The notes: a model not told the origin generated them from the sequence alone. Shown: positions 5,305 through 52,530, counted from the first letter of the stretch. The stretch: 64,000 nt of DNA from Shigella phage Sf20 (MF327006), one strand, 5' to 3'. Made by a program: numbers and translations.

Positions 5305-6030
5305 TTACTTGAGTGTGTGGAATTGGCTATGTTTAGTCTCTCGCACCTTGACAGACCCATCGCGTTTGATATAATAGATCAGTGACTTGAGGGTGTCGTG
5401 TACATACGCGTGCGGGAAACGCTCTGGATACTTCTTCCAATCTGGAGTATTAACGATCCAGTCGAAAATCCACCACGGGCAGGAGTAGTAACCACGACCG
5501 CCACCGATCAAGCAAATGGTCGGACGGAAGCCAGTAAGATCGCAAAATGAATCAGTGTCATGTGCTGGGGAACGATGCTCTGCTTCGTTAGAGAAAATGT
5601 TGGCTACCGGAGATTCCACTTTAACTTCCGGTGCTTCTTCAACATCTGACTTAACTTCTTCGACCACTGGTTCAACTGCTGGAGATTCTTCTTTTGTTTC
5701 TTCAATGGCGATCTCAGGTTCTTTCATTGCTTCAACCAGAGACGGATCAACTTCGTCGAATACCACTTTATCATCTGCGGTGTCTGCTGCCAGAATAAGA
5801 TCGTTAATACTGGTTCCTTCTGCCGGAGTTTCTTCTTCCATTTCGGAAGCCAGTTTAGTTAATTCGGTTTCTACGAACTCGATCATGTTCTCTAGTGATA
5901 AAGTCTTTTTGACCTTAATATCAAATTGTTTTGCGTAGTCAGCTAATTCTGTTTTAGCTGTTTTCTGTGCTTCTTTGTCGTCGGACGCCGCAATAGCGCG
6001 GAGTTCTTCGAAATATTCTTTATCAAACAT
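5305..6030 (-). CDS. acidic head-associated protein with Hoc-like C-terminal module (Inh-like by position)
   Basis: Acidic low-complexity middle; C-terminal GYYSCPWWIFDWIVNTPDW resembles Hoc IGWWVFDEIVKF; sits between hoc and uvsW as inh does in T4. Confidence 0.45.
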   Translation of the reverse strand: MFDKEYFEELRAIAASDDKEAQKTAKTELADYAKQFDIKVKKTLSLENMIEFVETELTKLASEMEEETPAEGTSINDLILAADTADDKVVFDEVDPSLVEAMKEPEIAIEETKEESPAVEPVVEEVKSDVEEAPEVKVESPVANIFSNEAEHRSPAHDTDSFCDLTGFRPTICLIGGGRGYYSCPWWIFDWIVNTPDWKKYPERFPHAYVHDTLKSLIYYIKRDGSVKVRETKHSQFHTLK

Positions 6031-15790: not shown

Positions 15791-15798
15791 TAAGCGAA

Positions 15799-15826
15799 AG
15801 GCGGGGATTATCCCCCGCCTTTTTAT
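15799..15826. terminator. bidirectional rho-independent terminator (GGCGGGGATTATCCCCCGCC + T-run)
   Basis: GC-rich hairpin between convergent gene 54 and the - strand lipoprotein gene. Confidence 0.6.
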
Positions 15827-16308
15827 TTTGCTAAATCATTGCAATATTTTAGTGCCTTAGTTTGAAATTCTGCGCTGTTAAGTTCTTCATAACGGTCATA
15901 ATCACCGTTTAATGCTGCCTTTCTTGCTTCTTGCTCTATCTGCATGTCAGACATGATAATACAGCGATCCCGTGCTTTCATCTTCTCAAGTTGTATAGAC
16001 TCTTCTTTCTGCTTGCGCAATTCTTCTTGACGCTTCTTTTCTTCTTGTGCTTTCTCTTCCCGCGCTTCTTTGATTGCATCCTTGAACATCTGCGTTTGTG
16101 GTGCTAAACCAACTTTAACGCGATCCACGTCTCGACGTTCCATTTTAGAAATAAAGCACGATTCGATCTGATCATCACTTGCATATGCTGCTTTACATTC
16201 ACGAAGCAAGAAAACCGGATCTGATTTAGCATTCATCATAGCTTCCATGTTGGCACAACCAGTAAGCATGAATGCAGCCGCAAGACCAATCAGTTTAATC
16301 ATTTTCAT
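15823..16308 (-). CDS. putative lipoprotein
   Basis: Signal peptide with lipobox LTGC near N-terminus; lysine/glutamate-rich coiled region. Confidence 0.55.
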   Translation of the reverse strand: MKMIKLIGLAAAFMLTGCANMEAMMNAKSDPVFLLRECKAAYASDDQIESCFISKMERRDVDRVKVGLAPQTQMFKDAIKEAREEKAQEEKKRQEELRKQKEESIQLEKMKARDRCIIMSDMQIEQEARKAALNGDYDRYEELNSAEFQTKALKYCNDLAK

Positions 16309-17129
16309 TTAGTCACCTCACCGAAAATTGTAAATTGTCTACGATTCTCATCGCCGAAAGATTCTACTACGTCGTTTACCTTGACGCAAGTCCCGCGCGG
16401 TAAAATTACTTCACATTCGCAAGGGTTCCATGCAATTGACCCAACAACAAAACCTTTATGATCTTTTACGTCAATTACCCATGATACATTACAAGAATGT
16501 TGCATCTTTCCGGTCATTGATTCATATCGATTCTCACAATAAAGGCTAGTGCTGTTTGATAGCCATCCTCCAAAGATGATCGGTGTCATGCTGGTCGATA
16601 CAAAGTTTTTAAAGGTAAACTCCTTATCTTCAATGATGCGCTCTATTGTCTGAATGTCAAGATGTTGACCGCGATAAAGAGTACCGTTTAACTTTTCGGT
16701 TTTATCCATGACACAATCCATCAAATCAACAATCTCTGATATCTCATCGGTCATGTCTTCTTCCCCTAAGAGAGCACCATTTACCCATTCGTATTGCTCA
16801 GACACATAATCACATATTGCATTATATTCTGCTGGGGTTATGTTGTTATGTTTGTAATGTTTGAATACATTATCTCCAAAGTCTTCGGAGTGTACTTCAT
16901 ACATCACATTAATGATTTTCTTGACAAATCCATAATCTTGTGTCTCACGCTCAAGGAAGCGGATAACCTTCACATAATCATCAAAGTTAATCTGATCGCT
17001 GATCATCTCAGTGATCATGTAACCATTAATCCCCTCAATGTCATATGTTTCGATGTAATTATCCATACGTTCCATCATTGATTCGCGTGATTCTTCTGAA
17101 AGACGAAAATCCTGTAATTTCTTGAACAT
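16305..17129 (-). CDS. ADP-ribosyltransferase (Alt/Mod family paralog)
   Basis: R-S-E triad context: LYRGQHLD, FVSTS, ECEVILPRG; closely mirrors the C-terminal catalytic region of the adjacent alt gene. Confidence 0.65.
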   Translation of the reverse strand: MFKKLQDFRLSEESRESMMERMDNYIETYDIEGINGYMITEMISDQINFDDYVKVIRFLERETQDYGFVKKIINVMYEVHSEDFGDNVFKHYKHNNITPAEYNAICDYVSEQYEWVNGALLGEEDMTDEISEIVDLMDCVMDKTEKLNGTLYRGQHLDIQTIERIIEDKEFTFKNFVSTSMTPIIFGGWLSNSTSLYCENRYESMTGKMQHSCNVSWVIDVKDHKGFVVGSIAWNPCECEVILPRGTCVKVNDVVESFGDENRRQFTIFGEVTK

Positions 17130-17152
17130 TTTAAGCCTCCCATATAACAGAA

Positions 17153-17181
17153 AACGGGGCTAGTATAAAACTAGTCCCCGT
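17153..17181 (-). terminator. terminator hairpin downstream of alt
   Basis: ACGGGGCTAGT...ACTAGTCCCCGT stem-loop with T-run on the - strand. Confidence 0.5.
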
Positions 17182-17207
17182 TTGAGTCAACCATTATTTC
17201 TTAAAAA

Positions 17208-19333
17208 TTACATTTTAAATTTATCTGGCATTGCGTCTACAGATACCAGGTCAGCGATAAGCTGACGTAGAGTTGCCTTATCTGCTTTCTTACGTTCGGT
17301 TTTAGCTTCGCTAATGAAGCTGGAGAAAGACAGGTCAGAAGCAGGTTTAACAACACCTTCACGGATGAATGCATCACCGTCCGCGATCATCTCGCCAGAT
17401 TCTTGTAATGCTGCCAGTTCATTTTTGTTCATAATATGTGCCTCAATGTAATAAGTTTCTTGTGAATCCGTCGATGCCGTAGCACGAGTTACCGTATCAA
17501 AGGATAACACAACACCGCGAGGAAGTAAAATCTCGCATTCTTTGTAAGCAAATGCTTTGTTACCTACTGGCAAGACAGGGATGTTTTCCGCGCCAGCAAT
17601 GGAGAAAGCAACATTAGCGCCACCTTCACCGCGAGAGCCAGCCATAGAATCAACACCAGCAACGGCACTAGCCACGTTTGCATTCCAGCCGCCAAAAATT
17701 CACCGCGAGAGCCAGCCATAGAATCAACACCAGCAACGGCACTAGCCACGTTTGCATTCCAGCCGCCAAAAATGTTAGGTGCAAGGGAAGTGCTCACATA
17801 GTTTTTAAAGTAAAACGCTTTTTGCTTACGTGCAGTTTCCCACATTTGCGACCGGAAGTCCATACCACGATACAGAATAGTACCCGGATCAAGTTTAACA
17901 CCATAGTTAGAGAAGGCATTATCCAGTGCATCGCACATCTTGACCAATTCTTCTGGATCTGCGATTCCCTCAAACTCTTCCAGCTTACGATCAGTTAGGA
18001 AGTTGTTCATATTGATGTATGCTGCATCGGCATATTCGCTCAACACAAAACCTTCCGCGCCTGGCAGATCAAGATCAATATCTGCCATCATTTCACCCAT
18101 GTTGCTAGCAATTGCTTCAAACATACCGGAGGCAACATTACGTAGGGCATCGGTTTTAATCTGGGTGATATGACTACGCAGCATTTCAGCTTTTACATCT
18201 GCTGGCATAGACTGGTCTACTCGATCCATTGCCAAGGCGGTGATCTTGTTTTCGAATACTTCCTCGCTCATGATTTCTTTTAAGCGTTTGACCGAGGCTG
18301 CGATAACTTCCGCAGACAATGGGTCATATTGATCCTGAACTTTTACCAGTTCGCTTACTGCGTATTTTGCATCGGCTTCGCTTTCAAAAATAGTACGCAT
18401 GAAACCATAGCGAGTGATAATATCACTTGTCCAGTCATTCAGAGAACGGGCGGTTGAACGTTCTAAGGCTTGACGGTCAATCAGAGTATTAAACTGTTTC
18501 TTAGGTTCTGCTTCGGTGATATCTTCTTCCGGTTTAAGATTAATTTTTTCTGGATGATTCACATAGTCGCTGTTATAGGTCGCTTGAGTTTTCAGCATTT
18601 CTTCTTTAGTCAAACGAGATTTAGCCGCTACGCGTTGTTCTGCTTCCGCGTTTCGTTCTTCTTCTGACACAAGACTAGCCGCATACGCCTCATCTTTAGT
18701 CAGAGATTCACCAGTAGCCTTAGATACCCAGCGATCACCTAAATCACTTTCTACTTTAGTGAACAAGGATTCATCAAGTTTAATCCCTTTAATCTTATCA
18801 ATCGCCATCCCGCGACGCTTGACAACAACTAAAGCGATCTTTTTGCTGGTCATTACTTCCTGCTGGAATACTTCAAACTTCGGTGTACGACGCACCAAAC
18901 GCTCTATAACGCGCTTAACCAGTTCGGTCTTACCTTTCATGCGGGATACGTTAAAACGGAACATAACAGCGTCTAATTGAGCTTTACGGGCTGTTTCCAT
19001 AACCACATCAAAAGCACTTGCCATAACTGCAATCGGGTTATCGCCTAGACCATTTTTAAGCTGTATAATACGACCGCTTTTGTTCATTTCGCACAGTACA
19101 ACATGTGCGGTCTTGTCACCCATACGAATGATTTTAGGTGTTTTGTTGGTGAAGTTGCAAAGACGGACAATCACATCTTTATCGCGTGTCTGTACTGCAA
19201 AAAGCTGTTTAGGATTCTGCTTAGGCTTTAAGCACTGTACAGGAGCAATACTGCCAAAGTTTTCTTCCTCTTCCGTCAACAGCCATTTCTCGAAAGATTC
19301 AATCATTAGATCGTCGATTTCTAAGTTAAACAT
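17208..19333 (-). pseudogene. alt: alt ADP-ribosyltransferase, reading frame split by a 74-bp tandem duplication (ORFs 17564..19333 and 17208..17675)
   Basis: Upstream ORF ends ...FKNYVSTSLAPNIFGG...VAGVDSMAGSRGE then garbage; downstream ORF begins ASAVAGVDSMAGSRGE... and carries ECEILLPRG; removing one repeat copy gives a 684-aa protein (T4 Alt is 682 aa). Confidence 0.75.
17625..17772. repeat. perfect tandem duplication, 2 x 74 bp (17625-17698 and 17699-17772)
   Basis: Unit TTCACCGCGAGAGCCAGCCATAGAATCAACACCAGCAACGGCACTAGCCACGTTTGCATTCCAGCCGCCAAAAA repeated head-to-tail; 74 is not a multiple of 3. Confidence 0.9.
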
Positions 19334-19379
19334 TTTATATCCTCTAGTTGATAACCTATAAACCTATATTTATGAAAAC

Positions 19380-19400
19380 GGGGCTTAACGCCCCCTTTTT
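19380..19400. terminator. bidirectional terminator hairpin (GGGGCTTAACGCCCC + T-run)
   Basis: GC stem with A-run before and T-run after. Confidence 0.5.
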
Positions 19401-19614: not shown

Positions 19615-19650
19615 TTGATACTCCTTAGTAGTTCGTTTCGGTATGTGTGC

Positions 19651-19679
19651 ATTATAGGGGATCACCGATCCCCTGTCAA
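19651..19679 (-). promoter_or_regulatory. early sigma70-type promoter with palindromic spacer (stem-loop type)
   Basis: On - strand: TTGACA, 17-nt spacer GGGGATCGGTGATCCCC (perfect palindrome), TATAAT; A-rich UP-like tract upstream. Confidence 0.55.
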
Positions 19680-19686
19680 CAACTTT

Positions 19687-20241
19687 TTAGTTATTTTTTA
19701 ATTGTTCATCTTGCAATAATGCAATCACATGCTGGCGATGTTCTTCCGATTGAGGTACACCGAAAAAGTTTGTTTTGTAGAAATACTCTAATCGGTCTTC
19801 TCGTGTGCTCTCTTCCATCATGATCGCGGGTAGTCCGAGATTTCGGAAACGTCGCTTTTCTGCTGGCGTAAAATCACTGTAATACAACATAGAATCATCA
19901 TTACAAGCAATGCTAAACTCATCCTTCATAAAGGAGAATATTGCGTTTAAACGCTGTTTACCGTCCACGATTTCGATCTCATAGCGAGAGCCATCATCAA
20001 TCTTAGCCATTGCGATAGCACCAACCGGAAAATCATTAATCAGGTTTTCAATAAACATACGTTTGTTTTCGGTGTCCCATACTAAAGGACGCTGATAATC
20101 TGGGTTCATGTTGATATAGCCATCTTCTAACCATGCTTCGTAAACAGAGATAACAAAGTTTTTAGTATTGGTATAGTAGCGGCGTTTAGGCGTTAAACGG
20201 TTCATGTTATAGTCTCCTGAATGGGTCATCACGTAAATCAA
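19687..20241 (-). CDS. DUF262 (ParB-like nuclease superfamily) domain protein
   Basis: DYQRPLVWD and IVDGKQRL motifs resemble the DUF262/GmrS N-terminal domain signature (DGQQR). Confidence 0.55.
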   Translation of the reverse strand: MIYVMTHSGDYNMNRLTPKRRYYTNTKNFVISVYEAWLEDGYINMNPDYQRPLVWDTENKRMFIENLINDFPVGAIAMAKIDDGSRYEIEIVDGKQRLNAIFSFMKDEFSIACNDDSMLYYSDFTPAEKRRFRNLGLPAIMMEESTREDRLEYFYKTNFFGVPQSEEHRQHVIALLQDEQLKNN

Positions 20242-20536
20242 TATCTTTTAAGAACTCATCCCATGAATGGCGGATATTGTTCTTAATTCTCCAGATGAGC
20301 GCAGGGATTGAACGCTCTCCCATCTGGAAGTATGGATCATATGATCCGTATGCCCAATATGCTACTACAATTCCACAATCAGAGCAATAGTATTCTATTT
20401 CACTTGCTGGCGACCAAAGTCCATCAATATGATCGGTGATCTTGCTTTCGATGTTATGGCTATGACAATCAGGGCAACGGATGCAATGACCTTGTTTATC
20501 GTAATTTGACGTTAGCGAATACTTAAACAATCTCAT
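20207..20536 (-). CDS. zinc-ribbon protein (two CxxC pairs)
   Basis: CIRCPDC...CSDCG; overlaps the downstream gene start, operon-like. Confidence 0.45.
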   Translation of the reverse strand: MRLFKYSLTSNYDKQGHCIRCPDCHSHNIESKITDHIDGLWSPASEIEYYCSDCGIVVAYWAYGSYDPYFQMGERSIPALIWRIKNNIRHSWDEFLKDIDLRDDPFRRL

Positions 20537-21252
20537 TATAGATCCTTATTTGCTTCAAATACTGCCTTTGCGAATCCTCGCGGGGTAAGTGACCTTATAG
20601 TCTTTGTTTTCGTTCCTTTCCCGCCTAGCTTAGAATGCTGTTTACTGTACCCTTTATTAATCTGCAACGGTTTCTTTTCTGGCATTATAAAGCCTTGTCC
20701 GGTCCATAAGCAAGTCTTTTTTGGGTACATATCACGGGCGGCAATATACTCAGGAAACGTAGGATGCTTATCATCTTCCGGCAAATAACCGCCATATTCC
20801 CACGGATGGAACATATAATCAGGCTTACGCCACATGCTAGAGATAACGCTTACAGGATTCTCTATCATGTAGGGAACTCCTAGCCATTCACCCAAATAAG
20901 CGGTTATTTTAGCTGCCCGTACATCATGAACTTGAATCAATGGTCCTTGTTCTCGTTTCTTTCGTTCAAAGTGCGCAGCGCCACTAACAGCTAAATTGGT
21001 GCACGGTGGGAATGCAAAGATAATATCCGGTTTCCCCCATTCAAGGTCCATTGCTCTTTCCAGCCAGTTCAAATCAATCCATGTGTTTACATAGGTAATG
21101 TTTGGATGTTCAAATCTGGTATTATACTTTTTGTATGTGCCGTGGTCGCCATCATCAGCATTAAAGCAGATCACCTTATGACCTGCTTTAGCCCATTCTA
21201 GCCCCATTATCCCCGATCCGTCAAAGTTACAGAATATTAATTTTTGTTTCAT
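20536..21252 (-). CDS. DNA cytosine-5 methyltransferase-like protein (catalytic core only)
   Basis: Motif I-like FDGSG, motif IV-like PPC (catalytic Cys), motif VI-like ENP, with spacing typical of C5-MTases; no large target recognition domain. Confidence 0.45.
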   Translation of the reverse strand: MKQKLIFCNFDGSGIMGLEWAKAGHKVICFNADDGDHGTYKKYNTRFEHPNITYVNTWIDLNWLERAMDLEWGKPDIIFAFPPCTNLAVSGAAHFERKKREQGPLIQVHDVRAAKITAYLGEWLGVPYMIENPVSVISSMWRKPDYMFHPWEYGGYLPEDDKHPTFPEYIAARDMYPKKTCLWTGQGFIMPEKKPLQINKGYSKQHSKLGGKGTKTKTIRSLTPRGFAKAVFEANKDL

Positions 21253-27728: not shown

Positions 27729-28202
27729 TTACTCCTTATTTTCGCGCTCGTACTTTTCGAAATAAAATTCTACTGGCTGGTCATTAATTGACAGCAATCC
27801 AAAGCGTTTAGCCGCTCGCAATCCCATATTGCGCTGAATGTACTTCTGGAAGTTCTCGCGTATACACTTACGCCAGTATTCTAAGCCCATACAGCTTTTA
27901 TAAAGATTGCATTGCACACACGCCGGATTCATGTTATCAAGTATATCATGTTCCGGTTTATGCATTCCTACAACCTTATACTTCCACGATCCATCATCAT
28001 TACGGGCAATTCGTCCATTTTCATCATAGACTACCTTTGAGCGTCGCAATACTGGTTTGATGTGGTCTGCGTGCCAGCGATCCCCTAGTTCCTCGCCACA
28101 ATAGGCACAACGTCCACCATATTTCATTTTCAGGATCTGTCGTTGCTCTTTCTTTGACAATTTTTTAGGTTTAGGGGCTTTCGCCCCTTCATTATCACAC
28201 AT
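27729..28202 (-). CDS. HNH endonuclease (freestanding homing-endonuclease-like)
   Basis: CAYCGEELGDRWHADHIKP...CVQCN: HNH/zinc-finger signature. Confidence 0.7.
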   Translation of the reverse strand: MCDNEGAKAPKPKKLSKKEQRQILKMKYGGRCAYCGEELGDRWHADHIKPVLRRSKVVYDENGRIARNDDGSWKYKVVGMHKPEHDILDNMNPACVQCNLYKSCMGLEYWRKCIRENFQKYIQRNMGLRAAKRFGLLSINDQPVEFYFEKYERENKE

Positions 28203-29697
28203 CGAATACCTCTTTTACTGTATTTGCAGTGGTCTTGTCGTAGCGAATACGTTTGATGATTGGGAGAAATAAAGAGAACTCCGGTTCATCTTCTTTACGT
28301 GATTTGCTGCGAATGTACCCGTTGCATGTCATCTCAATGACTTTTCCAATCAGGTTATGACGGTCAGCCCATAACATTTCTCGGTCGAGTTCATTTCGAC
28401 GATCGAACGGAATTACACGTTCAGTACCATCATCACCTTTTTCGGTTGTAGTGTCGGTTAATCCCGATCCGGTGTTAGTCATCATTCGTCCGCACGCACT
28501 ACGGACAGTAAAACCGCCTACCTTATTGGGGTCTTTACTATGCGGATATACATCAACAATTTCCGCGTCGAAGTCAATCACTTCTTTAAATTTAACCTGA
28601 TCTTTACTACGGCGATCTTCAAATACACCATGTAAATTTTTAAGGATAATACCTTCTAAGCCCATGTTTACATAGCGATGATATACTTCGCGAGCTTCAT
28701 CTATATTGTTAACTACAGTGTTTTCGATTATCTGAACACGAGGATCGTTAAGTTCTTCAACAATCTGTTTTAGTTCTTCGAATCGATCTTTATATTGCTT
28801 CGTTGCTTTCTCGTTTCCGTAATACACATCACGGTCGATAACATCCCAGACAGTGTAAACAATACATTGGGCTTCTTCTTTTGGAATAGTTCCTTTCAGT
28901 GATTTGTTGAGGATACCATTTCCGGTCTGACGATCTGCAACAACGGATTCTTTTACTGCTTCCGCTACTGGCGTTAATGGCATTTCCTCTTCTTCAAATA
29001 TCCATGACAGAGTACCATCATAAACGCTTTCAACGAAGTTCTGCGCTGGTGTTTGCGAAAGGGTAGGCATATATACCAATTCCCCATCTAGAACAATTCC
29101 ACGGCCTCGTAGACGCTCTAGAACAGCAAACAAATCATCAAGTCCCTGATAGGTATTACCTGAACGGGTATAGATTGCTAATGTTTCCCCGTCAATATCA
29201 GCCATCCCACGAGCGCCATCGCTTTTAAGTTGTGCATACGCCGGATACTTGATATTAGCAATAGTCTTATCAGAACATGACGATGCAAGGTGGCACGGTT
29301 GCTGAGGGATCAGTTTCTTCCATACCTTGTTTGCAGTGGTAGCGGAACAACCACATTCCAGATCACGATTCAGGACCATCATTGCAACTTTAGCATCATC
29401 CTCTGACAAGCAAGTCAGAGTATCGGTAACTAGCTGTAATGCTGCATTACCAGTTACTTGACGCGTGGCAAGTTTATTTTTAAAGACCTGTAATGCACCG
29501 GATAAAGACAATACAGACGAATAGCGAGATGGTTTATCGTATTTCTTTACGCCAAACGTAACCTGTTTGCAATATGCCAGATAAAAGCATTCTTTCAGCG
29601 TTTCATTGCTTGCTGATTCTTTCAGAATCTTTTCTTTCAGCGATGTTTTGTCTGTTGCTGCAAGCTGATTAATGATATTAAGAATTGACATTTTCAC
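28195..29697 (-). CDS. 30: ATP-dependent DNA ligase gp30
   Basis: Adenylation motif KSDGARG (KxDGxR), size 500 aa, synteny alt-30-31. Confidence 0.85.
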   Translation of the reverse strand: MKMSILNIINQLAATDKTSLKEKILKESASNETLKECFYLAYCKQVTFGVKKYDKPSRYSSVLSLSGALQVFKNKLATRQVTGNAALQLVTDTLTCLSEDDAKVAMMVLNRDLECGCSATTANKVWKKLIPQQPCHLASSCSDKTIANIKYPAYAQLKSDGARGMADIDGETLAIYTRSGNTYQGLDDLFAVLERLRGRGIVLDGELVYMPTLSQTPAQNFVESVYDGTLSWIFEEEEMPLTPVAEAVKESVVADRQTGNGILNKSLKGTIPKEEAQCIVYTVWDVIDRDVYYGNEKATKQYKDRFEELKQIVEELNDPRVQIIENTVVNNIDEAREVYHRYVNMGLEGIILKNLHGVFEDRRSKDQVKFKEVIDFDAEIVDVYPHSKDPNKVGGFTVRSACGRMMTNTGSGLTDTTTEKGDDGTERVIPFDRRNELDREMLWADRHNLIGKVIEMTCNGYIRSKSRKEDEPEFSLFLPIIKRIRYDKTTANTVKEVFDV

Positions 29698-30157
29698 CTC
29701 GTTTTGTTAAACGTTCACGAATATCATTGAGGATACTACAAAATTCCGATTCAGTCAATATAGTCTTTAACGGATCAGTTCCACCTATACTATGACGTAA
29801 TTTCTTATTTCCGGTAGAGAGTAATGCTTTACAAAATTCTGGGTTATTCCGTGCCATCGTAACAAATGCCAGATGTACCAGTCTGTAATAATGCTCACTC
29901 ATTCGATGAATAGGGCGACCCTGAAAATATAACATGTGATTCTCAATCTTTTCAGTTCTTCCGGTTCTTTTTGCTTTGCCACCGTGCATCAAAAAGATTT
30001 CTCTTTGTCTCTGAGGGTTCTTAAATCTTAGCCCCTGTAAAAATCCTTCTGTGCTGTTAATATCGCAACCAAATAGACGGAATGGTCTTTTATTGAAATT
30101 ACTCAATTCACCCGATGGATAAGGTCCACCCGCATAGATATCAATTTCAGAAGTCAT
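29678..30157 (-). CDS. NADAR/YbiA-like (DUF1768) protein
   Basis: LSNFNKRPF...EGFLQGLRF and ALLSTGNKKL match the YbiA/NADAR family signature. Confidence 0.65.
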   Translation of the reverse strand: MTSEIDIYAGGPYPSGELSNFNKRPFRLFGCDINSTEGFLQGLRFKNPQRQREIFLMHGGKAKRTGRTEKIENHMLYFQGRPIHRMSEHYYRLVHLAFVTMARNNPEFCKALLSTGNKKLRHSIGGTDPLKTILTESEFCSILNDIRERLTKRGENVNS

Positions 30158-43463: not shown

Positions 43464-44309
43464 TTACGCTGTCAACTCTTTTTCAAAAGATTTTACGATA
43501 TACATTAAATTTCTAATTTCGGACGGTGGGATTGTCTCTGTCCACCCGTCCGGCATAACTTTTTGCGATACGTGGCGTGTTTTATTACTAAGTTTTTGTC
43601 GAACAATACCCTCTAATTTTAGGGGTATGTTTCCATCTTTAGTTGTTAACGTATGGAATATAAAGTGACGAACGGAAGACACGCTGGATTGCTGTTTCAT
43701 CCTTTCCTCGGCTTTTTTGTTAGTGATTCCGAACTTATACCCGACAATACAACCCCAATTATCAACCAGTTTTTGTATATAAAAGGTTCCTGGTTTTCTT
43801 TTATCATAACCTCCTTTTTGAGTGGGACATTTCGGACACTGCATATCATCTAAAGATGCGACATATTTGCCATGAACGCAGCAATCCATACTTAGATTCT
43901 TTTCTCTTGCATTAATATACCCATTAATAAATCCATTGGATTTTACTTTTTCATTATGAGAACAAAATTCATCAATTCGTATATTTGCTGATATAACATT
44001 TTTTCTTCTCATTCGTTCCATCCAACATTCTTGACAACCACCTCCCCCATTTTTAAGTATATCGATAGTGGTTAATTTTTGCTTGTGGTTTGGATTTAAT
44101 CCACAAGCAATTTTAATTTTAGATCGTACACCAGACCACTCATAGAATCCCAAATATATCATATCTCCGCTTTTTATTTTTGGCGAATTTAATGCTTCAT
44201 TTTCAATCTCAATTGGAGATTTTGAATTATAGTAATGGATATATTCTATATCTTTAGCAAATCTGGTGTTCATTTTGTCCTCCGTTGTTTCTATGCTTGC
44301 ATTATACAT
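43464..44309 (-). CDS. T5orf172/GIY-YIG-like domain protein with Cys-rich N-terminal region
   Basis: C-terminal GTFYIQKL...VGYKFGITNKKAEERMK...GWTETIPP resembles T5orf172 (MUG113) domain; N-terminal CQEC and CPKC pairs. Confidence 0.45.
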   Translation of the reverse strand: MYNASIETTEDKMNTRFAKDIEYIHYYNSKSPIEIENEALNSPKIKSGDMIYLGFYEWSGVRSKIKIACGLNPNHKQKLTTIDILKNGGGGCQECWMERMRRKNVISANIRIDEFCSHNEKVKSNGFINGYINAREKNLSMDCCVHGKYVASLDDMQCPKCPTQKGGYDKRKPGTFYIQKLVDNWGCIVGYKFGITNKKAEERMKQQSSVSSVRHFIFHTLTTKDGNIPLKLEGIVRQKLSNKTRHVSQKVMPDGWTETIPPSEIRNLMYIVKSFEKELTA

Positions 44310-48457: not shown

Positions 48458-51400
48458 ATGGCAGATTTTTCTCAACATTTCAAGGCCACATTTGGCTTTG
48501 ACGCTGGTAATGAAAAGGTCGTCAATGTAGCATTGGCTGATAAGAATGTCAACACCGATGCGGTCAACGTTGAATTTTTCAATTACCATAATGGTATTAC
48601 TCAGTATGACACAACTCGCGGTTATGATCAATACGGAACTACAATCTATCAAAACCGTCCGTATTATGCAAAAGAAGATATCACAAAGCCAGCAGGTGAT
48701 TTTGACCCGACTAAATGGCAAGCACTGCGCACGGACCCACGTTGGGATTATATTGCAGCAACTTCCGGTGATACTCCTTTAAAGTCTGGTGATTATATCG
48801 CAGCAGATGGTCAATTTGCAAACTTGACTTTCTCTATGCCAACTAAACCAGCAGAGGGAGACACTATAACAGTAAAAGATATCGGTGGCAAGTGTGGTGT
48901 TAACGAATTATCGTTCTTGAGTTCAGGACATGAGTTTTACCATAACGGTAATGTGTATAACCGAAAATGGTATTGCACTACCCCGTATGCAATGAACTAT
49001 TTCATCTTTGTTCGTAATCGTTGGCATGTTTATCAGACGGGAACAGAGCCGCGCGGTGTGTACGCACAGCCAGCGATTGATGCTATTCAAATGCAGAATG
49101 GTGATCAGGTATTTCGTCGTAGTTCGTTGGGTAATATTACCTTAGTGCTTCCTAAGTTTGCCAACAATGGCGACATGATCCAGACTACAGACCTTGACGG
49201 ATTAACCGCAACCAACCACGTTACGGTTAAAGTTCATGAGCACGCAGAAGAACAATCAATTGGCACGTCCGGTCTAAAAGAGATTATCGGTAAGCGTAGC
49301 GGTCATGGTGTATTCATCTTTGACAAGACGGAAAACTTATGGCGTTTGTGGGATGGTGATCAGTCTGTTCGTCTTAAACCGATCATCGATGACACTCGCT
49401 TGCAACCTAATAGCTATGTTGCTGTATTTGGTGATCGTGATGTTACTCTGACGCTGCCGACCAATGTCGAGCCGGGTGATCGTATTCAAGTTTCTATGCA
49501 GTATATGCACGGAAACCAGAATTGCCGTATTATCACCGCCACAGAGGATACAAAAATCCTTATGCCGAAAAACATGGTTCAGTTTCCGAAGCGTAGCGAG
49601 TACCCATTCAACGGGACCGACACATGGAAGGAAGTGTCTGAATTGTCGTTCAATGCGGCTAGTGATTATGTACCTTATCTGGAGTTCTCTTATTCAGAAG
49701 GTGATGATGGTAAGAAATACTGGTTGGTGGCACATGCTCACCCGATTGTAGAACGAGTAGATCCGACTCGTAAAGATCGTGTTGGTGTAATTGCACTGGC
49801 TACCCAGGATGAAACAAACAAAAACCATGAAGAGAATCCTAGCGACGAAGTTGCGGTAACACCAAAAATGCTGGCTAATAAAACCGCCAACGAAACTCGA
49901 CGCGGTATTGCTCGCATTGCGACTCAAGCGGAAACGCATCAAGATACTGGTTCCAACTTCCTGGATGATGTTATCGTTACGCCTAAAAAGTTAAATGACT
50001 GTGTTGCTACCGAAGCCCGTCGTGGCGTGATGGAAATTGCAACCCAGCACGAAACCAATGAAGGTTTAGACGATACCCGCGCTATTACTCCTAAGAAATT
50101 AGAAGAACGTCGCGCTTCCGAAGATCTCGCTGGTATTGCTGAAATTGTTCAGGCTGGCGGTAGTGCTGCCGCTCGACGTGGCGAAGCTGGTACAGGGATC
50201 TATAACATCAACGACCATGTTAAAATTGTTACGCCACAAAACATCAACGAAGTCAAGGCGACCGAAACTTCCCGTGGTGTTGGCTATCTGGCAACTGACG
50301 CGGAAGTGCAAGGGGCTACAGAATCAACCCCGCAAGATGCTTTACTAATCACGACTCGCACGCTAACGAAACGTACTGCTACCGAATCGCGCACTGGTAT
50401 CGCTGAAATTGCAACTCAGGAAGAAACAAACTTAGGTCAAAGTGATAGCCATATCATCACGCCTAAAAAGCTGCATACTCGCCGCGCAACGGAAACTTTA
50501 CATGGTTTAGCAGAAATTGCAACTCAACCGGAATTTGACGCAGGTCTTGACGATGCTCGCATTTCTACCCCATTGAAGATTAAAACCTTCTTTGAGAATG
50601 CACAGCGTTTGAAAGTAGATCCGACTCAGGGGCTTAACCTTACTGGTGATTTGTGGCAAGGTATCATGATCAGCGGTCTGGATGCAACCGAAGACACAAA
50701 AGGTGTCGCTAAAGTTGCTACTACTCAGCTTACGGATGCTGGTCAAGATGATACTACAATCATCACGCCTAAAAAGCTGCAAGGCAAAAAGGCAACCGAA
50801 GGTAAAGAAGGTATTATCCGAGTTGGTACTCAAGCCGAAACCGTGGCTGGTGCACTGGCTAATGTAGCAATTTCTCCGAAGAACTTCAAATATGTTGTTC
50901 AGACAGAGGATACATGGAAAGCAACCGAATCGCGTCGTGGCTTCTTGAAAGTTGCTACTCAGGAAAACTGTTTTGTTGGTGATAATCTGCAAGGTTCTAC
51001 TCAAGAACTAGGAAACTACCAGCATGACGGAATTGCTGTTACCCCGAAAGGATTAAACTACGCACTTGCTAATTTCTTACCTAAGATGGCAACCGCTCAG
51101 AATAGTTTGAAATTGGGTAACGTAGAGGCCGCTAAATGGGCGCGTAGAGACATTGACCAGACCATAGAGAGCAATTACACGTTTAATAAAAAAGTTAACG
51201 TGAAGGGCGATTTAGAGTGCTTAAAATCAGGTTCCTTTGAAACTCTGTCTGTGACTAAGAACTCGACCGATGTTCCGAGTAATGGTCATCTGGTGTTGGG
51301 TGAGCGTGGAGTTGACGGTCACACCGGAATTACTCTGCATGGCACAACCGCATCGGAAGGCATGAAAAACTCTTGGTCGATTATCGTTGGTGGTACGGGA

Positions 51401-52530
51401 ACAGCGCAAGTTGTTGATAGTGATGCTATCGCTTTCGGTAAAATCAATGATGGTGGAGTCGTTGAGCATTACGCCTTTGCTATGAAACACAATGGCGACG
51501 CGACAGCATATAGAGACTTTATTGCAGGTCGTAACCTGTATGCGAAACAAGGCGGTTTATACATTGTTGACCAGTCTAATCCGGCAATGACTCGTTCCCC
51601 AGATGGTATGCTGAATATCGGTCACGGTGGAAGTGTTAACATCAAGGCAGGTCATCAAACGTTAACTACAGAGATCGCCGGACAGAAATATCAGATCGTA
51701 CACGCAGGAAACGCTGACGAAGTTCTTAACCGTCAGTTTGTTAAGAATGCTGGCGATACAATGGTCGGTAAGCTGACTATGGATAATGCGCCTATTGTTT
51801 CTGTTAAGCATGAAGCTAGCGCGGCAACCGCTCCGGCAATCGGTAACATCGGTTTCTGGAATATGCGAGTTACTACCCAGAACATCAAAGAAACTTATCC
51901 AGAGAAGAAAAACGGTACTCTGATGCAATGGGGTACTGACGCGGACGGGCTTACCCAGCTTTGGTCCCCTGATGGTACTCATAAACATTATATCCGTTCC
52001 GGTACTGGCGGGGACAGAAATATCAGATCGTACACGCAGGAAACGCTGACGAAGTTCTTAACCGTCAGTTTGTTAAGAATGCTGGCGATACAATGGTCGG
52101 TAAGCTGACTATGGATAATGCGCCTATTGTTTCTGTTAAGCATGAAGCTAGCGCGGCAACCGCTCCGGCAATCGGTAACATCGGTTTCTGGAATATGCGA
52201 GTTACTACCCAGAACATCAAAGAAACTTATCCAGAGAAGAAAAACGGTACTCTGATGCAATGGGGTACTGACGCGGACGGGCTTACCCAGCTTTGGTCCC
52301 CTGATGGTACTCATAAACATTATATCCGTTCCGGTACTGGCGGTCAATGGACCGCATGGGGTGAAATTTACACCAAACAGAACAAACCTACCGCTCAGGA
52401 AATCGGGGCAGTAGTTGCAGAAGGTGGTTTAATGAACTCTATGACGGTTCGTGATTGGATCAAAGTTGGTAATGTTAAAATCATCGCCAATAATCTGACT
52501 CGTACCGTAGACTTTATCTGGGAAGACTAA
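48458..52530 (+). pseudogene. 34: long tail fiber proximal subunit gp34, reading frame interrupted by a 332-bp tandem duplication (ORFs 48458..52108 and 52093..52530)
   Basis: 1216-aa ORF ends ...GTHKHYIRSGTGG + out-of-frame tail; next ORF repeats MVGKLTMDNAP...HYIRSGTGG then continues; deleting one repeat copy restores ~1246 aa (T4 gp34 is 1289 aa). Confidence 0.75.
51680..52343. repeat. perfect tandem duplication, 2 x 332 bp (51680-52011 and 52012-52343)
   Basis: Both copies read identically by eye from GGACAGAAATATCAGATCG... to ...CCGTTCCGGTACTGGCGG; 332 is not a multiple of 3. Confidence 0.85.

Follow-up and report, generated by a model that had tools for sequence, protein, structure and literature searches.

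The ADP-ribosyltransferase (ART) Alt of phage T4, a protein of 682 amino acids, is a head-packaged NAD+:arginine mono-ADP-ribosyltransferase that modifies RNA polymerase alpha among other proteins. The head carries approximately 40 copies of it, both of its ends are processed, and it is non-essential (PMC9026906). T4 also makes ModA and ModB, early ARTs of approximately 200 amino acids. In the related phage RB49, an open reading frame (ORF183c or RB49p183; NP_891754.1) lies between alt and a lipoprotein gene, convergent with gene 54, and appears in Nolan et al. 2006 as a paralogue that arose by duplication of alt (PMC1524935). Its record reads 'ADP-ribosyltransferase, similar to C-terminal part of T4 Alt'. 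Our literature search found no published experiments on ORF183c or any orthologue. A further ADP-ribose enzyme of T4, the NADAR protein gp30.3 (AdfN), takes ADP-ribose off DNA guanine and so counters the host DarT1 toxin (PMC11825919, PMC11125620, PMC11543638), and it is both necessary and sufficient against DarTG1 (PMC11825919, PMC11125620). The co-occurrence of ART and NADAR genes in T4-like phages has already been discussed (PMC9503650).

To compare these systems with a further locus, we analysed a stretch of 64,000 nucleotides from Shigella phage Sf20 (MF327006), here called the window. The phage is a Krischvirus, that is, an RB49-like coliphage of the T4 type, and 58 Krischvirus records match it at 95–99% identity. 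An earlier, sequence-only reading had proposed that a protein of 274 amino acids beside alt shows the Arg, Ser-Thr-Ser and Glu-x-Glu order of an ART, and we located these motifs in the open reading frame at 16305..17129 on the minus strand: R153 in LYRGQHLD, S178-T179-S180 in FVSTS, and E238 and E240 in ECEVILPRG. Careful alignment revealed no lost catalytic residue. In an alignment of 64 homologues that reached down to 23% identity, R153, S178, E238 and E240 did not vary, and T179 and S180 were at least 90% conserved. Profile searches placed the protein among ARTs, with a match to Pfam ADPrib_exo_Tox (PF03496) over residues 82–266 (E = 4.3e-16; 59.3 bits, cutoff 23.4) and a full-length match to phrog_15144, 'ADP-ribosyltransferase' (2.6e-198). 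Both scores are far above chance. The gene is the same as RB49 ORF183c, which occupies the same place, belongs to the same PHROG family and differs from it only synonymously, so that the two 274-residue proteins are 100% identical; the ECD7 protein is also 100% identical.

An AlphaFold2 model of the protein was confident (pLDDT 91.7, pTM 0.89). When compared with the PDB by Foldseek, it gave 115 matches at E ≤ 1e-3, of which the top ones were Vis, C3bot2, Certhrax, CDTa and iota Ia (E of 1e-10 to 1e-8, TMt 0.6–0.65), and its structural neighbours in BFVD were Alt proteins (TMq up to 0.75). In the structure of the top match, Vis, the enzyme is bound to agmatine, a small-molecule acceptor. The specificity of Vis, CDTa and iota Ia is for arginine, and that of C3 is for asparagine. 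The model predicts that the phage protein shares its fold and active-site layout with these C3-like and binary-toxin ARTs (Vis, C3bot, Certhrax, CDTa and iota Ia) at only 13–20% sequence identity; unlike them, it carries some 60 additional helical residues at its N-terminus and lacks a secretion signal and a translocation partner. From alignment and model together, we conclude that it is an Alt-type ART with a complete C3/VIP2/Alt-type R-S-E active site.

The relationship to Alt is confined to one part of that protein. The catalytic region is homologous to that of T4 Alt (31% identity over 181 residues, E = 1e-23), with the same R, STS and ExE motifs, and the helices ahead of the catalytic core are also common to both, the alignment covering only positions 330–602 of the 674-position Alt profile phrog_802. 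The N-terminal domain of approximately 330 amino acids (Tevenvirinae_ADPRT, PF26846) is present in Alt proteins, whereas the 274-residue ART and its orthologues carry PF03496 only. A C-terminal tail of approximately 80 residues, which ends in ...P(D/E/Y)KF... and is kept in two alt-derived proteins (P0007 and P0008) and in the repaired Alt of the window (see below), is absent from the stand-alone clade, in which the sequence stops right after the last beta-strand. Besides lacking both of these parts of T4 Alt, the ART has another promoter type and falls in a separate deep clade. This stand-alone clade is monophyletic, and in a ranking of 66 by distance the window's own Alt comes only 61st. The order alt, ART, lipoprotein is kept in a relative whose proteins are 46%, 44% and 38% identical, respectively. 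The 274-residue ART, the genus-wide orthologue of ORF183c, branched off long ago from the catalytic region of Alt. No similarity to ModA or ModB was detectable by BLASTP (best E of 0.41 and 4.9, respectively); judged by size and promoter, these proteins are likely analogues, as small, stand-alone, early-made R-S-E enzymes. The single mod gene of RB49 is a different gene, located at the T4 mod locus outside the window, and its 167-residue product is nearer to ModB (8e-11).

Scans for promoters and hairpins, together with conservation, identified a compact element between alt and the ART gene (17152..17190, minus strand), in which the predicted alt terminator hairpin (approximately 17183–17152; −20.6 kcal/mol, z = −3.9) overlaps a putative early-type sigma-70 promoter of the ART (−35 GTTGAC(T) at 17190–17185, −10 TATACT at 17167–17162; scan score 10/12). 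The element is nearly invariant in a diverged relative (locus L004), with compensatory changes in the stem, though the flanking proteins are only 44–46% identical, which indicates conservation beyond the level of the coding sequences. The promoter was called by its match to the consensus, though this match is conserved; the same promoter was annotated independently in phage GEC-3S, and the early −35 preference of RB49 fits GTTGAC (PMC1524935). Inspection of the sequence immediately upstream of the ART gene revealed no late box. The region upstream of alt is arranged differently, with a predicted terminator hairpin (19380–19394) and then a late-promoter-like box, CATAAATA (19374–19367), the two spanning 19367..19394 on the minus strand. 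The box precedes the alt start codon by approximately 35–40 nt and may be compared with the annotated late −10 boxes of RB49, TGTAAATA, GTAAATA and TCTAAATA; L004 has AATAAATA in its place. T4-like genomes share a conserved terminator ahead of alt (PMC1524935). This arrangement is consistent with Alt being synthesized late, packaged and injected.

The sequence-only reading had also noted a lipoprotein gene near the ART, and we found there an open reading frame for 161 amino acids (15823..16308, minus strand) with a predicted signal peptide, an LTGC lipobox, a coiled-coil middle and four further cysteines. The ART and lipoprotein genes overlap by 4 nt (ATGA), which hold the stop codon of the former and the start codon of the latter. 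The protein belongs to phrog_16112 (function unknown; 9e-110) and matched no family in Pfam, NCBIfam or PADLOC; a metagenomic relative encodes an orthologue, 38% identical, with the same lipobox at the same position. Between the lipoprotein gene and the convergent gene 54, the terminator scan detected a GC-rich hairpin (15796..15823) whose 11-bp stem precedes a run of T. It is a predicted bidirectional terminator, annotated as a terminator on both strands in GEC-3S, and would end the ART–lipoprotein transcript.

The missing N-terminal domain and tail, the sigma-70-type promoter and the coupling to the lipoprotein gene together suggest that the ART is synthesized early and de novo, as ModA and ModB are, and is not capsid-borne; its translation would be coupled to that of a lipoprotein predicted to be exported. 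It is unlikely that the enzyme is instead packaged in the head and injected like Alt, as a second virion-borne effector. Its descent from Alt and its place beside structural genes would fit packaging, as would the frequent packaging of ARTs in myovirus virions (PMC9503650), and L-S-E at residues 10–12 resembles the cleavage motif of the gp21 protease (PMC9026906); however, L-x-E tripeptides are frequent by chance, the conserved promoter is of the sigma-70 type with no late box immediately upstream, and the two parts of Alt that are missing are those processed in T4 (PMC9026906).

The alt gene itself (17208..19333, minus strand), whose product in T4-type phages is packaged in the head and ADP-ribosylates RNA polymerase, is interrupted in the window. 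The sequence-only reading missed that it is split into two open reading frames: one at 17564–19333 encodes 589 amino acids with the R and STS motifs (phrog_802, 8.7e-145), and the other, at 17208–17675, encodes 155 amino acids with ECEILLPRG, the ExE motif (phrog_802, 2.5e-33). Tandem Repeats Finder and direct reading of the sequence revealed a perfect tandem duplication of 2 × 74 nt at 17625..17772 (period 74, 100% match), which splits the frame between the STS and ExE motifs, 74 being 2 modulo 3; the junction has 1 nt of microhomology. Removing one copy restored an Alt of 683 amino acids that was 99.6% identical to RB49 Alt without gaps and 27% identical to T4 Alt over 695 residues (E = 4e-61). 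The duplication was found in none of the 58 Krischvirus records, and searches for its junction in IMG/VR, GTDB genomes, JGI metagenomes and E. coli genomes gave no match.

The tail-fibre gene 34 of the same window carries another perfect, blunt duplication that breaks the frame, this one of 332 nt, and the presence of this second lesion makes both duplications probable artefacts. Gene 34 is essential in T4, so a genome with both lesions should be non-viable, an argument that assumes gene 34 to be essential in the window phage as well. The 74-nt duplication is most likely an artefact of sequencing or assembly, or else a very recent lesion, and not a feature of the lineage. Could the disruption be real, making this a natural alt-null phage in which the intact 274-residue paralogue covers the function? 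The non-essential nature of T4 Alt (PMC9026906) would permit it, the paralogue is intact and fully conserved, and the Acinetobacter phages ZZ1 and Henu6 have genes annotated as 'Split Alt'. We nevertheless consider it quite unlikely, given so perfect a copy with a single nucleotide of microhomology, its absence from the 58 relatives and every collection searched, and the second lesion in gene 34, with which it should not be viable.

The ARTT motif of the 274-residue ART is E-x-E and not Q-x-E, which suggests that the enzyme transfers a single ADP-ribose from NAD+ to arginines of host proteins. By analogy with Alt, ModA and ModB, the likeliest candidate targets belong to the host apparatus for transcription or translation, and the deep divergence, other architecture and other promoter type of the ART make it plausible that its targets differ from those of Alt. 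That it is active, which residue it modifies, which proteins it targets, when it is made and that it is missing from the virion are all inferred. Some R-S-E enzymes modify nucleic acids or, like ModB, attach RNA, and arginine–protein specificity is therefore not guaranteed. The acceptor might then be DNA or RNA bases, as for ScARP and the pierisins, NAD-capped RNA, as for T4 ModB, or a small molecule. The R-S-E clade does contain nucleic-acid-modifying and RNAylating enzymes (PMC9503650), and the Vis structure holds agmatine, but the ExE motif and the closest sequence relatives, the Alt proteins, point to protein arginine, and similarity to ModA or ModB is undetectable by BLASTP, so that a non-arginine acceptor seems decidedly improbable.

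The NADAR protein that had been placed at 29678–30157 (minus strand), adjoining DNA ligase (gene 30; 28195..29697, minus strand; open reading frame, RB49 and T4 annotation), is indeed found there. Its 159 amino acids matched the Pfam family Phage_30_3 (PF08010; E = 6.5e-38, 130.1 bits, cutoff 36), with the generic NADAR family (PF08719; E = 0.02, 15.6 bits, cutoff 35.1) below its cutoff. An AlphaFold2 model (pLDDT 88.3) matched only YbiA (2B3W; 9e-6, TM 0.66) and Phytophthora nicotianae PnNADAR (8BAU; 1e-3) when searched against the PDB by Foldseek. The protein is 38% identical to T4 gp30.3/AdfN over the full length (E = 6e-30) and shares with it the Phage_30_3 family and the predicted NADAR fold. 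E37, which corresponds to the catalytic T4 E36, and H122, the phage-specific histidine of the last strand, are invariant in the alignment with T4 gp30.3, and the modelled C-terminal helix (residues 136–152) is also common to both. This helix is needed for full AdfN activity (PMC11825919). The gene lies in the same gene 30 neighbourhood as in T4, where 30.1 and 30.2 separate the ligase from 30.3, whereas in the window the NADAR gene directly overlaps the ligase gene; RB49 annotates it as '30.3', beside gene 30. Family, synteny, alignment and model identify it as a genuine NADAR of the phage type, the syntenic orthologue of T4 gp30.3/AdfN and a predicted DNA ADP-ribosylglycohydrolase.

One residue sets this orthologue apart. 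R44 replaces the phosphate-binding K43 of T4 AdfN (K95 in the E. coli C7 NADAR); arginine is also found in two close relatives (P0186 and P0187), and all other aligned NADAR homologues have lysine at this position. In the C7 NADAR, K95R kept hydrolysis in vitro and lost rescue from DarT1 in vivo (PMC11543638). Given both observations, it is not assured that the Krischvirus AdfN functions equally to that of T4. The BASEL phages that the AdfN study names, Bas46 and Bas47, are described as RB69 relatives (PMC11825919), and the terms 'Krischvirus' and 'RB49' are absent from that study, so apparently no Krischvirus was among the phages assayed there. The natural Lys-to-Arg change might reflect an altered substrate or efficiency of the NADAR.

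The sequence-only reading had joined these genes into a toolkit with which the phage would both write and possibly erase ADP-ribosyl marks. This did not hold up as a unit, because AdfN is not known to act on the protein marks of Alt; its role is anti-defence at DNA guanine, and its gene stands in ancestral synteny approximately 10 kb away. That the NADAR removes marks written by Alt or the 274-residue ART, making ADP-ribosylation by the phage reversible, strikes us as very unlikely. Both kinds of gene do occur in one genome, several T4-like phages co-express NADARs and ARTs as early genes (PMC9503650), and we found no published test of a NADAR on arginine-ADP-ribosylated protein. Against this, T4 AdfN is necessary and sufficient against DarTG1 and hydrolyses guanine–ADP-ribose on DNA (PMC11825919, PMC11125620), the genes share no operon, the small open reading frames scanned in the interval between alt and the NADAR gene encode no Pfam ADP-ribose-related domain, and the NADAR gene simply follows the ancestral T4 order from ligase (30) to 30.3. 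By analogy with T4, the NADAR is a module separate from the ART, with a predicted role in anti-defence and not in erasing the phage's own arginine marks.

Selection on the ART gene was also evident. Synonymous and nonsynonymous changes within the genus stood at 13:0, 11:0 and 18:0, dN/dS was 0.10 against an 83% orthologue, and the open reading frame is intact in all relatives, a pattern that indicates purifying selection. That the gene is a decaying, functionless leftover of a partial alt duplication, as T4 alt.-1 and alt.-2 are annotated to be (an old broken duplication of the alt start at the equivalent position), has next to no chance of being right and is already effectively refuted by these substitution data, besides the catalytic residues invariant to 23% identity, the conserved promoter and the complete, confidently predicted fold.

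Novelty is low: the stand-alone Alt-like ART and gp30.3/AdfN are both real, were both known before and are not linked to each other, and the sole unusual feature of the window is the perfect 74-nt duplication that breaks alt, probably a sequence artefact. On balance, we favour an explanation that combines an early, non-packaged arginine ART, a separate AdfN module that would clear the guanine ADP-ribose set by host DarT1 on phage DNA, and an artefactual duplication in alt. More tentatively, and somewhat against the odds, the ART may be a distinct early, non-packaged arginine enzyme with targets unlike those of Alt and the Mod proteins, forming a conserved early 'takeover' operon with the coupled outer-membrane lipoprotein, and the Lys-to-Arg change in the Krischvirus AdfN may perhaps mark a shifted NADAR. 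If so, the ART–lipoprotein operon of Krischvirus-like phages would take the slot that is held in T4 by the second Mod enzyme.

We found that the gene beside alt (16305-17129, minus strand) encodes a 274-aa protein with the Arg / Ser-Thr-Ser / Glu-x-Glu arrangement of an ADP-ribosyltransferase (ART; motifs LYRGQHLD, FVSTS and ECEVILPRG), as an earlier reading based on the sequence only had claimed. The arrangement is not due to chance. The protein matched the Pfam profile ADPrib_exo_Tox at 4.3e-16, well over the curated cutoff, and matched phrog_15144 ('ADP-ribosyltransferase') from end to end at 2.6e-198; it also aligned to positions 330-602 of 674 in the Alt profile phrog_802. Residues R153, S178, E238 and E240 are kept and were invariant among 64 aligned sequences, in which T179 and S180 were kept in at least 90%. 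The 274-aa ART is the orthologue of RB49 ORF183c (RB49p183, NP_891754), which carries the RefSeq label 'ADP-ribosyltransferase; similar to C-terminal part of T4 Alt', and the RB49 and ECD7 proteins are 100% identical to it. The annotation of this paralogue goes back to the publication of the RB49 genome, and Nolan et al. in 2006 already gave RB49ORF183c, 44RRORF188c and T4 alt.-1/alt.-2 as paralogous alt duplications (PMC1524935). Partial duplication or splitting of alt is recurrent in T4-type phages: in T4, the annotation calls alt.-1 and alt.-2 (122742-123450) an old duplication of the alt start, and 'split' Alt annotations are found in the Acinetobacter phages ZZ1 and Henu6 (BFVD matches I3WW50 and A0A410T542).

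At 95-99% identity, region 15800-19400 matched 58 phage records, which with few exceptions are named Escherichia, Shigella or Enterobacteria phages (for example RB49, Phi1, JSE, GEC-3S and ECD7). The two whose taxonomy was checked, RB49 and GEC-3S, belong to the genus Krischvirus, and the first 25 kb of the window retrieved the same phage group. The gene order is of the T4 type, with genes 48 and 54 on the plus strand followed on the minus strand by a small gene, the 274-aa gene and alt, and with DNA ligase (gene 30) and a 30.3 homologue about 10 kb beyond alt. Judging by alignment breaks at ~19632-19655 and ~22070, the window lacks RB49 segments of ~220 nt and ~540 nt, and at 43570-44272 unrelated sequence stands in place of the region around RB49p240, an annotated endonuclease. 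Such differences in gene content resemble the usual exchange of mobile or accessory genes.

An AlphaFold2 model of the ART built from the 64-sequence alignment (pLDDT 91.7, pTM 0.89) gave 115 Foldseek matches in the PDB at E ≤ 1e-3, the best of which were Vis toxin (with NAD and with agmatine), C3bot2, Certhrax, CDTa and iota toxin Ia. Searches of the PDB by sequence gave weak matches only (Tre1-type toxin 6DRE, E 0.07; Vis, 0.55). Among predicted viral structures, the best match was an identical protein of phage PHB13 (TM 0.93), followed by Alt proteins with a TMq of up to 0.75 over ~340 columns, so the pre-core helices are also common to the ART and Alt. In C3-like enzymes, an ARTT motif of the form E-x-E accompanies an arginine acceptor and Q-x-E an asparagine acceptor. 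Because its ARTT motif is E-x-E, the 274-aa ART is probably arginine-specific. BLASTP aligned it to the window's Alt, repaired by removing one copy of a duplication, at 37% over 109 aa (E 1e-16) and to T4 Alt at 31% over 181 aa (E 1e-23), and detected no similarity to T4 ModA or ModB. NCBIfam had no family for the ART, the adjacent lipoprotein, the NADAR protein near gene 30 or RB49 Alt, and PADLOC gave no match for the ART or NADAR.

Only 87 relatives of the ART were found at E ≤ 1e-3 among 1.84 billion cluster representatives; a handful are stand-alone proteins of ~270-280 aa, and nearly all the others are Alt proteins of 600-712 aa. In a neighbour-joining tree of the catalytic region, a rough distance tree that supports nothing finer than an old split, the stand-alone proteins formed one long-branched clade and the Alt of their own genome was among the sequences most distant from them (rank 61 of 66), so the ART and Alt lineages separated long ago. 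Recent in-situ duplication of the neighbouring alt is ruled out, as the ART is farther from its own Alt than from most Alts, including that of T4. The gene is also no decaying remnant: comparison of the window, RB49 and GEC-3S showed 13, 11 and 18 synonymous changes with 0 nonsynonymous changes, dN/dS against an 83%-identical metagenomic orthologue was 0.10, and the module is conserved in a diverged metagenomic T4-like phage locus (L004). There the layout is the same, running from alt through the ART gene to the lipoprotein gene, convergent with gene 54, at identities of 46% for the alt product, 44% for the ART and 38% for the lipoprotein, with the lipobox retained.

The lipoprotein gene that the same reading had placed beside alt along with the ART is present at 15823-16308 on the minus strand. 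It encodes 161 aa with a signal peptide and an L-T-G-C lipobox, and its start lies inside the ART stop codon (ATGA). The protein is conserved, has a charged coiled-coil centre and four further cysteines, and is translationally coupled to the ART gene; phrog_16112 is its sole family assignment. That it acts in superinfection exclusion or at the cell envelope is no more than a guess. A toxin-immunity pair is ruled out, because the lipoprotein is predicted to be exported and the ART has no signal peptide.

The ART differs from Alt in architecture, as it lacks both the Alt N-terminal domain, assigned in Pfam to a family of its own (PF26846), and the Alt C-terminal tail. In T4, ~40 copies of Alt form part of the prohead core, and the gp21 protease trims both ends of the protein (PMC9026906). 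Between alt and the ART gene, a 78-nt spacer (17130-17207) contains a hairpin (-20.6 kcal/mol, z = -3.9) followed by a T run, overlapping a GTTGACT-N17-TATACT promoter; GTTGAC is the -35 form of RB49 early promoters according to Nolan et al. (PMC1524935), and the authors of the GEC-3S annotation give the same ART promoter. In L004 the spacer (5937-6000) is nearly invariant although the flanking proteins are 44-46% identical, with compensatory changes in the stem, and it is far better conserved than the coding sequence on either side. Upstream of alt are a terminator and CATAAATA, at which position L004 has AATAAATA; the annotated late boxes of RB49 are TGTAAATA and TCTAAATA. These signals suggest that Alt would be made late and then packaged, and that the 274-aa enzyme and the lipoprotein would be made early from their own promoter. 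We found no Krischvirus virion proteomics, transcript data or ORF183 experiments of use in the published literature. Outside the window, RB49 carries one mod gene as well, at the position of mod in T4; it encodes 167 aa and is closer to ModB. With alt and the stand-alone ART, the genus thus has at least three ARTs, as does T4, but the mix differs.

The alt gene (17208-19333, minus strand) is present as claimed, but the sequence-only reading overlooked that it is broken into two minus-strand ORFs, one of 589 aa with the Arg and STS motifs (17564-19333) and one of 155 aa with ECEILLPRG (17208-17675). Read directly in the DNA, 74 nt occur twice in tandem within alt (Tandem Repeats Finder: 17625-17773, period 74, 2.0 copies, 100% identity), and a length of 74 is not divisible by three, so that the reading frame is lost between the STS and ExE motifs. 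With one copy removed, alt encodes a 683-aa protein that aligns to RB49 Alt without gaps at 99.6% identity. The region that holds the duplication spans 281 nt in the window, and its counterpart spans 207 nt in 58 of 58 relatives, none of which therefore carries the duplication; its junction had no match in phage records, IMG/VR, JGI metagenome contigs or complete E. coli genomes, and was not in the GTDB set of one genome per species. Scanning the whole window revealed one further perfect tandem duplication (51680-52343, 2 x 332 nt, 100% identical, 2 mod 3), which frameshifts and truncates gene 34, encoding the proximal long tail-fibre subunit, into ORFs 48458-52108 and 52093-52530. Removing one 332-nt copy restored a 1246-aa frame, and none of the 30 relatives listed has this duplication. 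Both junctions are blunt, with microhomology of 0 nt for gene 34 and 1 nt for alt, and the other indels that separate the window from RB49 are small and ordinary. In T4, gene 34 is essential. T4 alt is non-essential (PMC9026906), and the phage could be a genuine alt-null, which we consider unlikely. Two perfect, unique, frame-breaking duplications within 64 kb, one of them in a gene required for adsorption, find their best explanation in artefacts of assembly or handling, or in a defective genome. Users of the Sf20 sequence should be aware that these interruptions of alt and gene 34 are probably non-biological.

The reading had further proposed a NADAR/YbiA-like protein beside DNA ligase, 10 kb away, and this was confirmed. 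The 159-aa product of 29678-30157 (minus strand), next to gene 30 (28195-29697), matched Pfam Phage_30_3 at 6.5e-38 and reached the generic Pfam NADAR profile at E = 0.02 only. Its model (pLDDT 88.3) has the NADAR fold, the sole fold matches being YbiA (2B3W, TM 0.66) and ADP-ribose-bound Phytophthora NADAR (8BAU); a PDB sequence match to D-alanyl carrier protein ligase (7e-4) is spurious, contradicted by the fold search. The protein is 38% identical to T4 gp30.3 (E 6e-30), and the RB49 gene is annotated as 30.3. This family is functionally solved, its role in T4 having been established in 2024-2025 (PMC11825919, PMC11125620, PMC11543638). T4 gp30.3, renamed AdfN, is necessary and sufficient for DarTG1 resistance and strips ADP-ribose from DNA, with E36, K43 and the C-terminal helix required for full activity (PMC11825919); in vitro it is active on guanine-ADP-ribose and inactive on thymidine-ADP-ribose (PMC11125620). 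In the window protein, the Glu is kept as E37 and the phage-specific His as H122, and the C-terminal helix is present, but Arg44 replaces the phosphate-binding Lys43 of AdfN; in the alignment this Arg is limited to the window protein and its two closest relatives. Schuller et al. found that K95R at the equivalent position of E. coli C7 NADAR kept in vitro hydrolysis and lost DarT1 rescue (PMC11543638), so by analogy a potency equal to that of T4 AdfN should not be assumed. The names 'Krischvirus' and 'RB49' are absent from the text of the AdfN paper (PMC11825919), which suggests that its tests included no Krischvirus.

The proposal that the ARTs write ADP-ribosyl marks that NADAR erases was not supported, and we regard such a joint set as very improbable: the genes are 10 kb apart with ~30 small ORFs between them, the place of NADAR beside ligase is ancestral T4 synteny, the known substrate of AdfN is a host-made mark on DNA, and nothing in this analysis supports an eraser role. 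Co-occurrence of ART and NADAR in T4-like phages was already discussed by Iyer and colleagues in 2022 (PMC9503650), and the NADAR papers cited here report no test on arginine-ADP-ribosylated protein. Pfam showed no ADP-ribose-related domain in ten ORFs between alt and ligase; all the ORFs scanned between the ART genes and NADAR lack such a domain, and among the products encoded there are a DUF262/GmrSD_N protein, a DNA methyltransferase and an HNH endonuclease. At 19687-21252, a 184-aa protein consisting of the GmrSD_N/DUF262 domain alone (Pfam 6e-20; PADLOC NsnA 4e-20, PD-T4-2_A 6e-12), a defence-like nuclease domain within a phage genome, is followed by a 109-aa Cys-rich ORF and then the methyltransferase.

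Apart from the break in alt, the initial observation was therefore real and its interpretation half right. The ART genes and NADAR were already known from RefSeq and PHROGs annotation and from published discussion, so the discovery value is small; the remaining interest lies in the targets and timing of the stand-alone ART and in the effect of the Lys-to-Arg change in AdfN. Because T4-type phages take over host transcription and translation by means of ADP-ribosylation, a third, architecturally different ART in what we take to be a cytosine-DNA relative of T4 would offer a convenient comparison to Alt, ModA and ModB.
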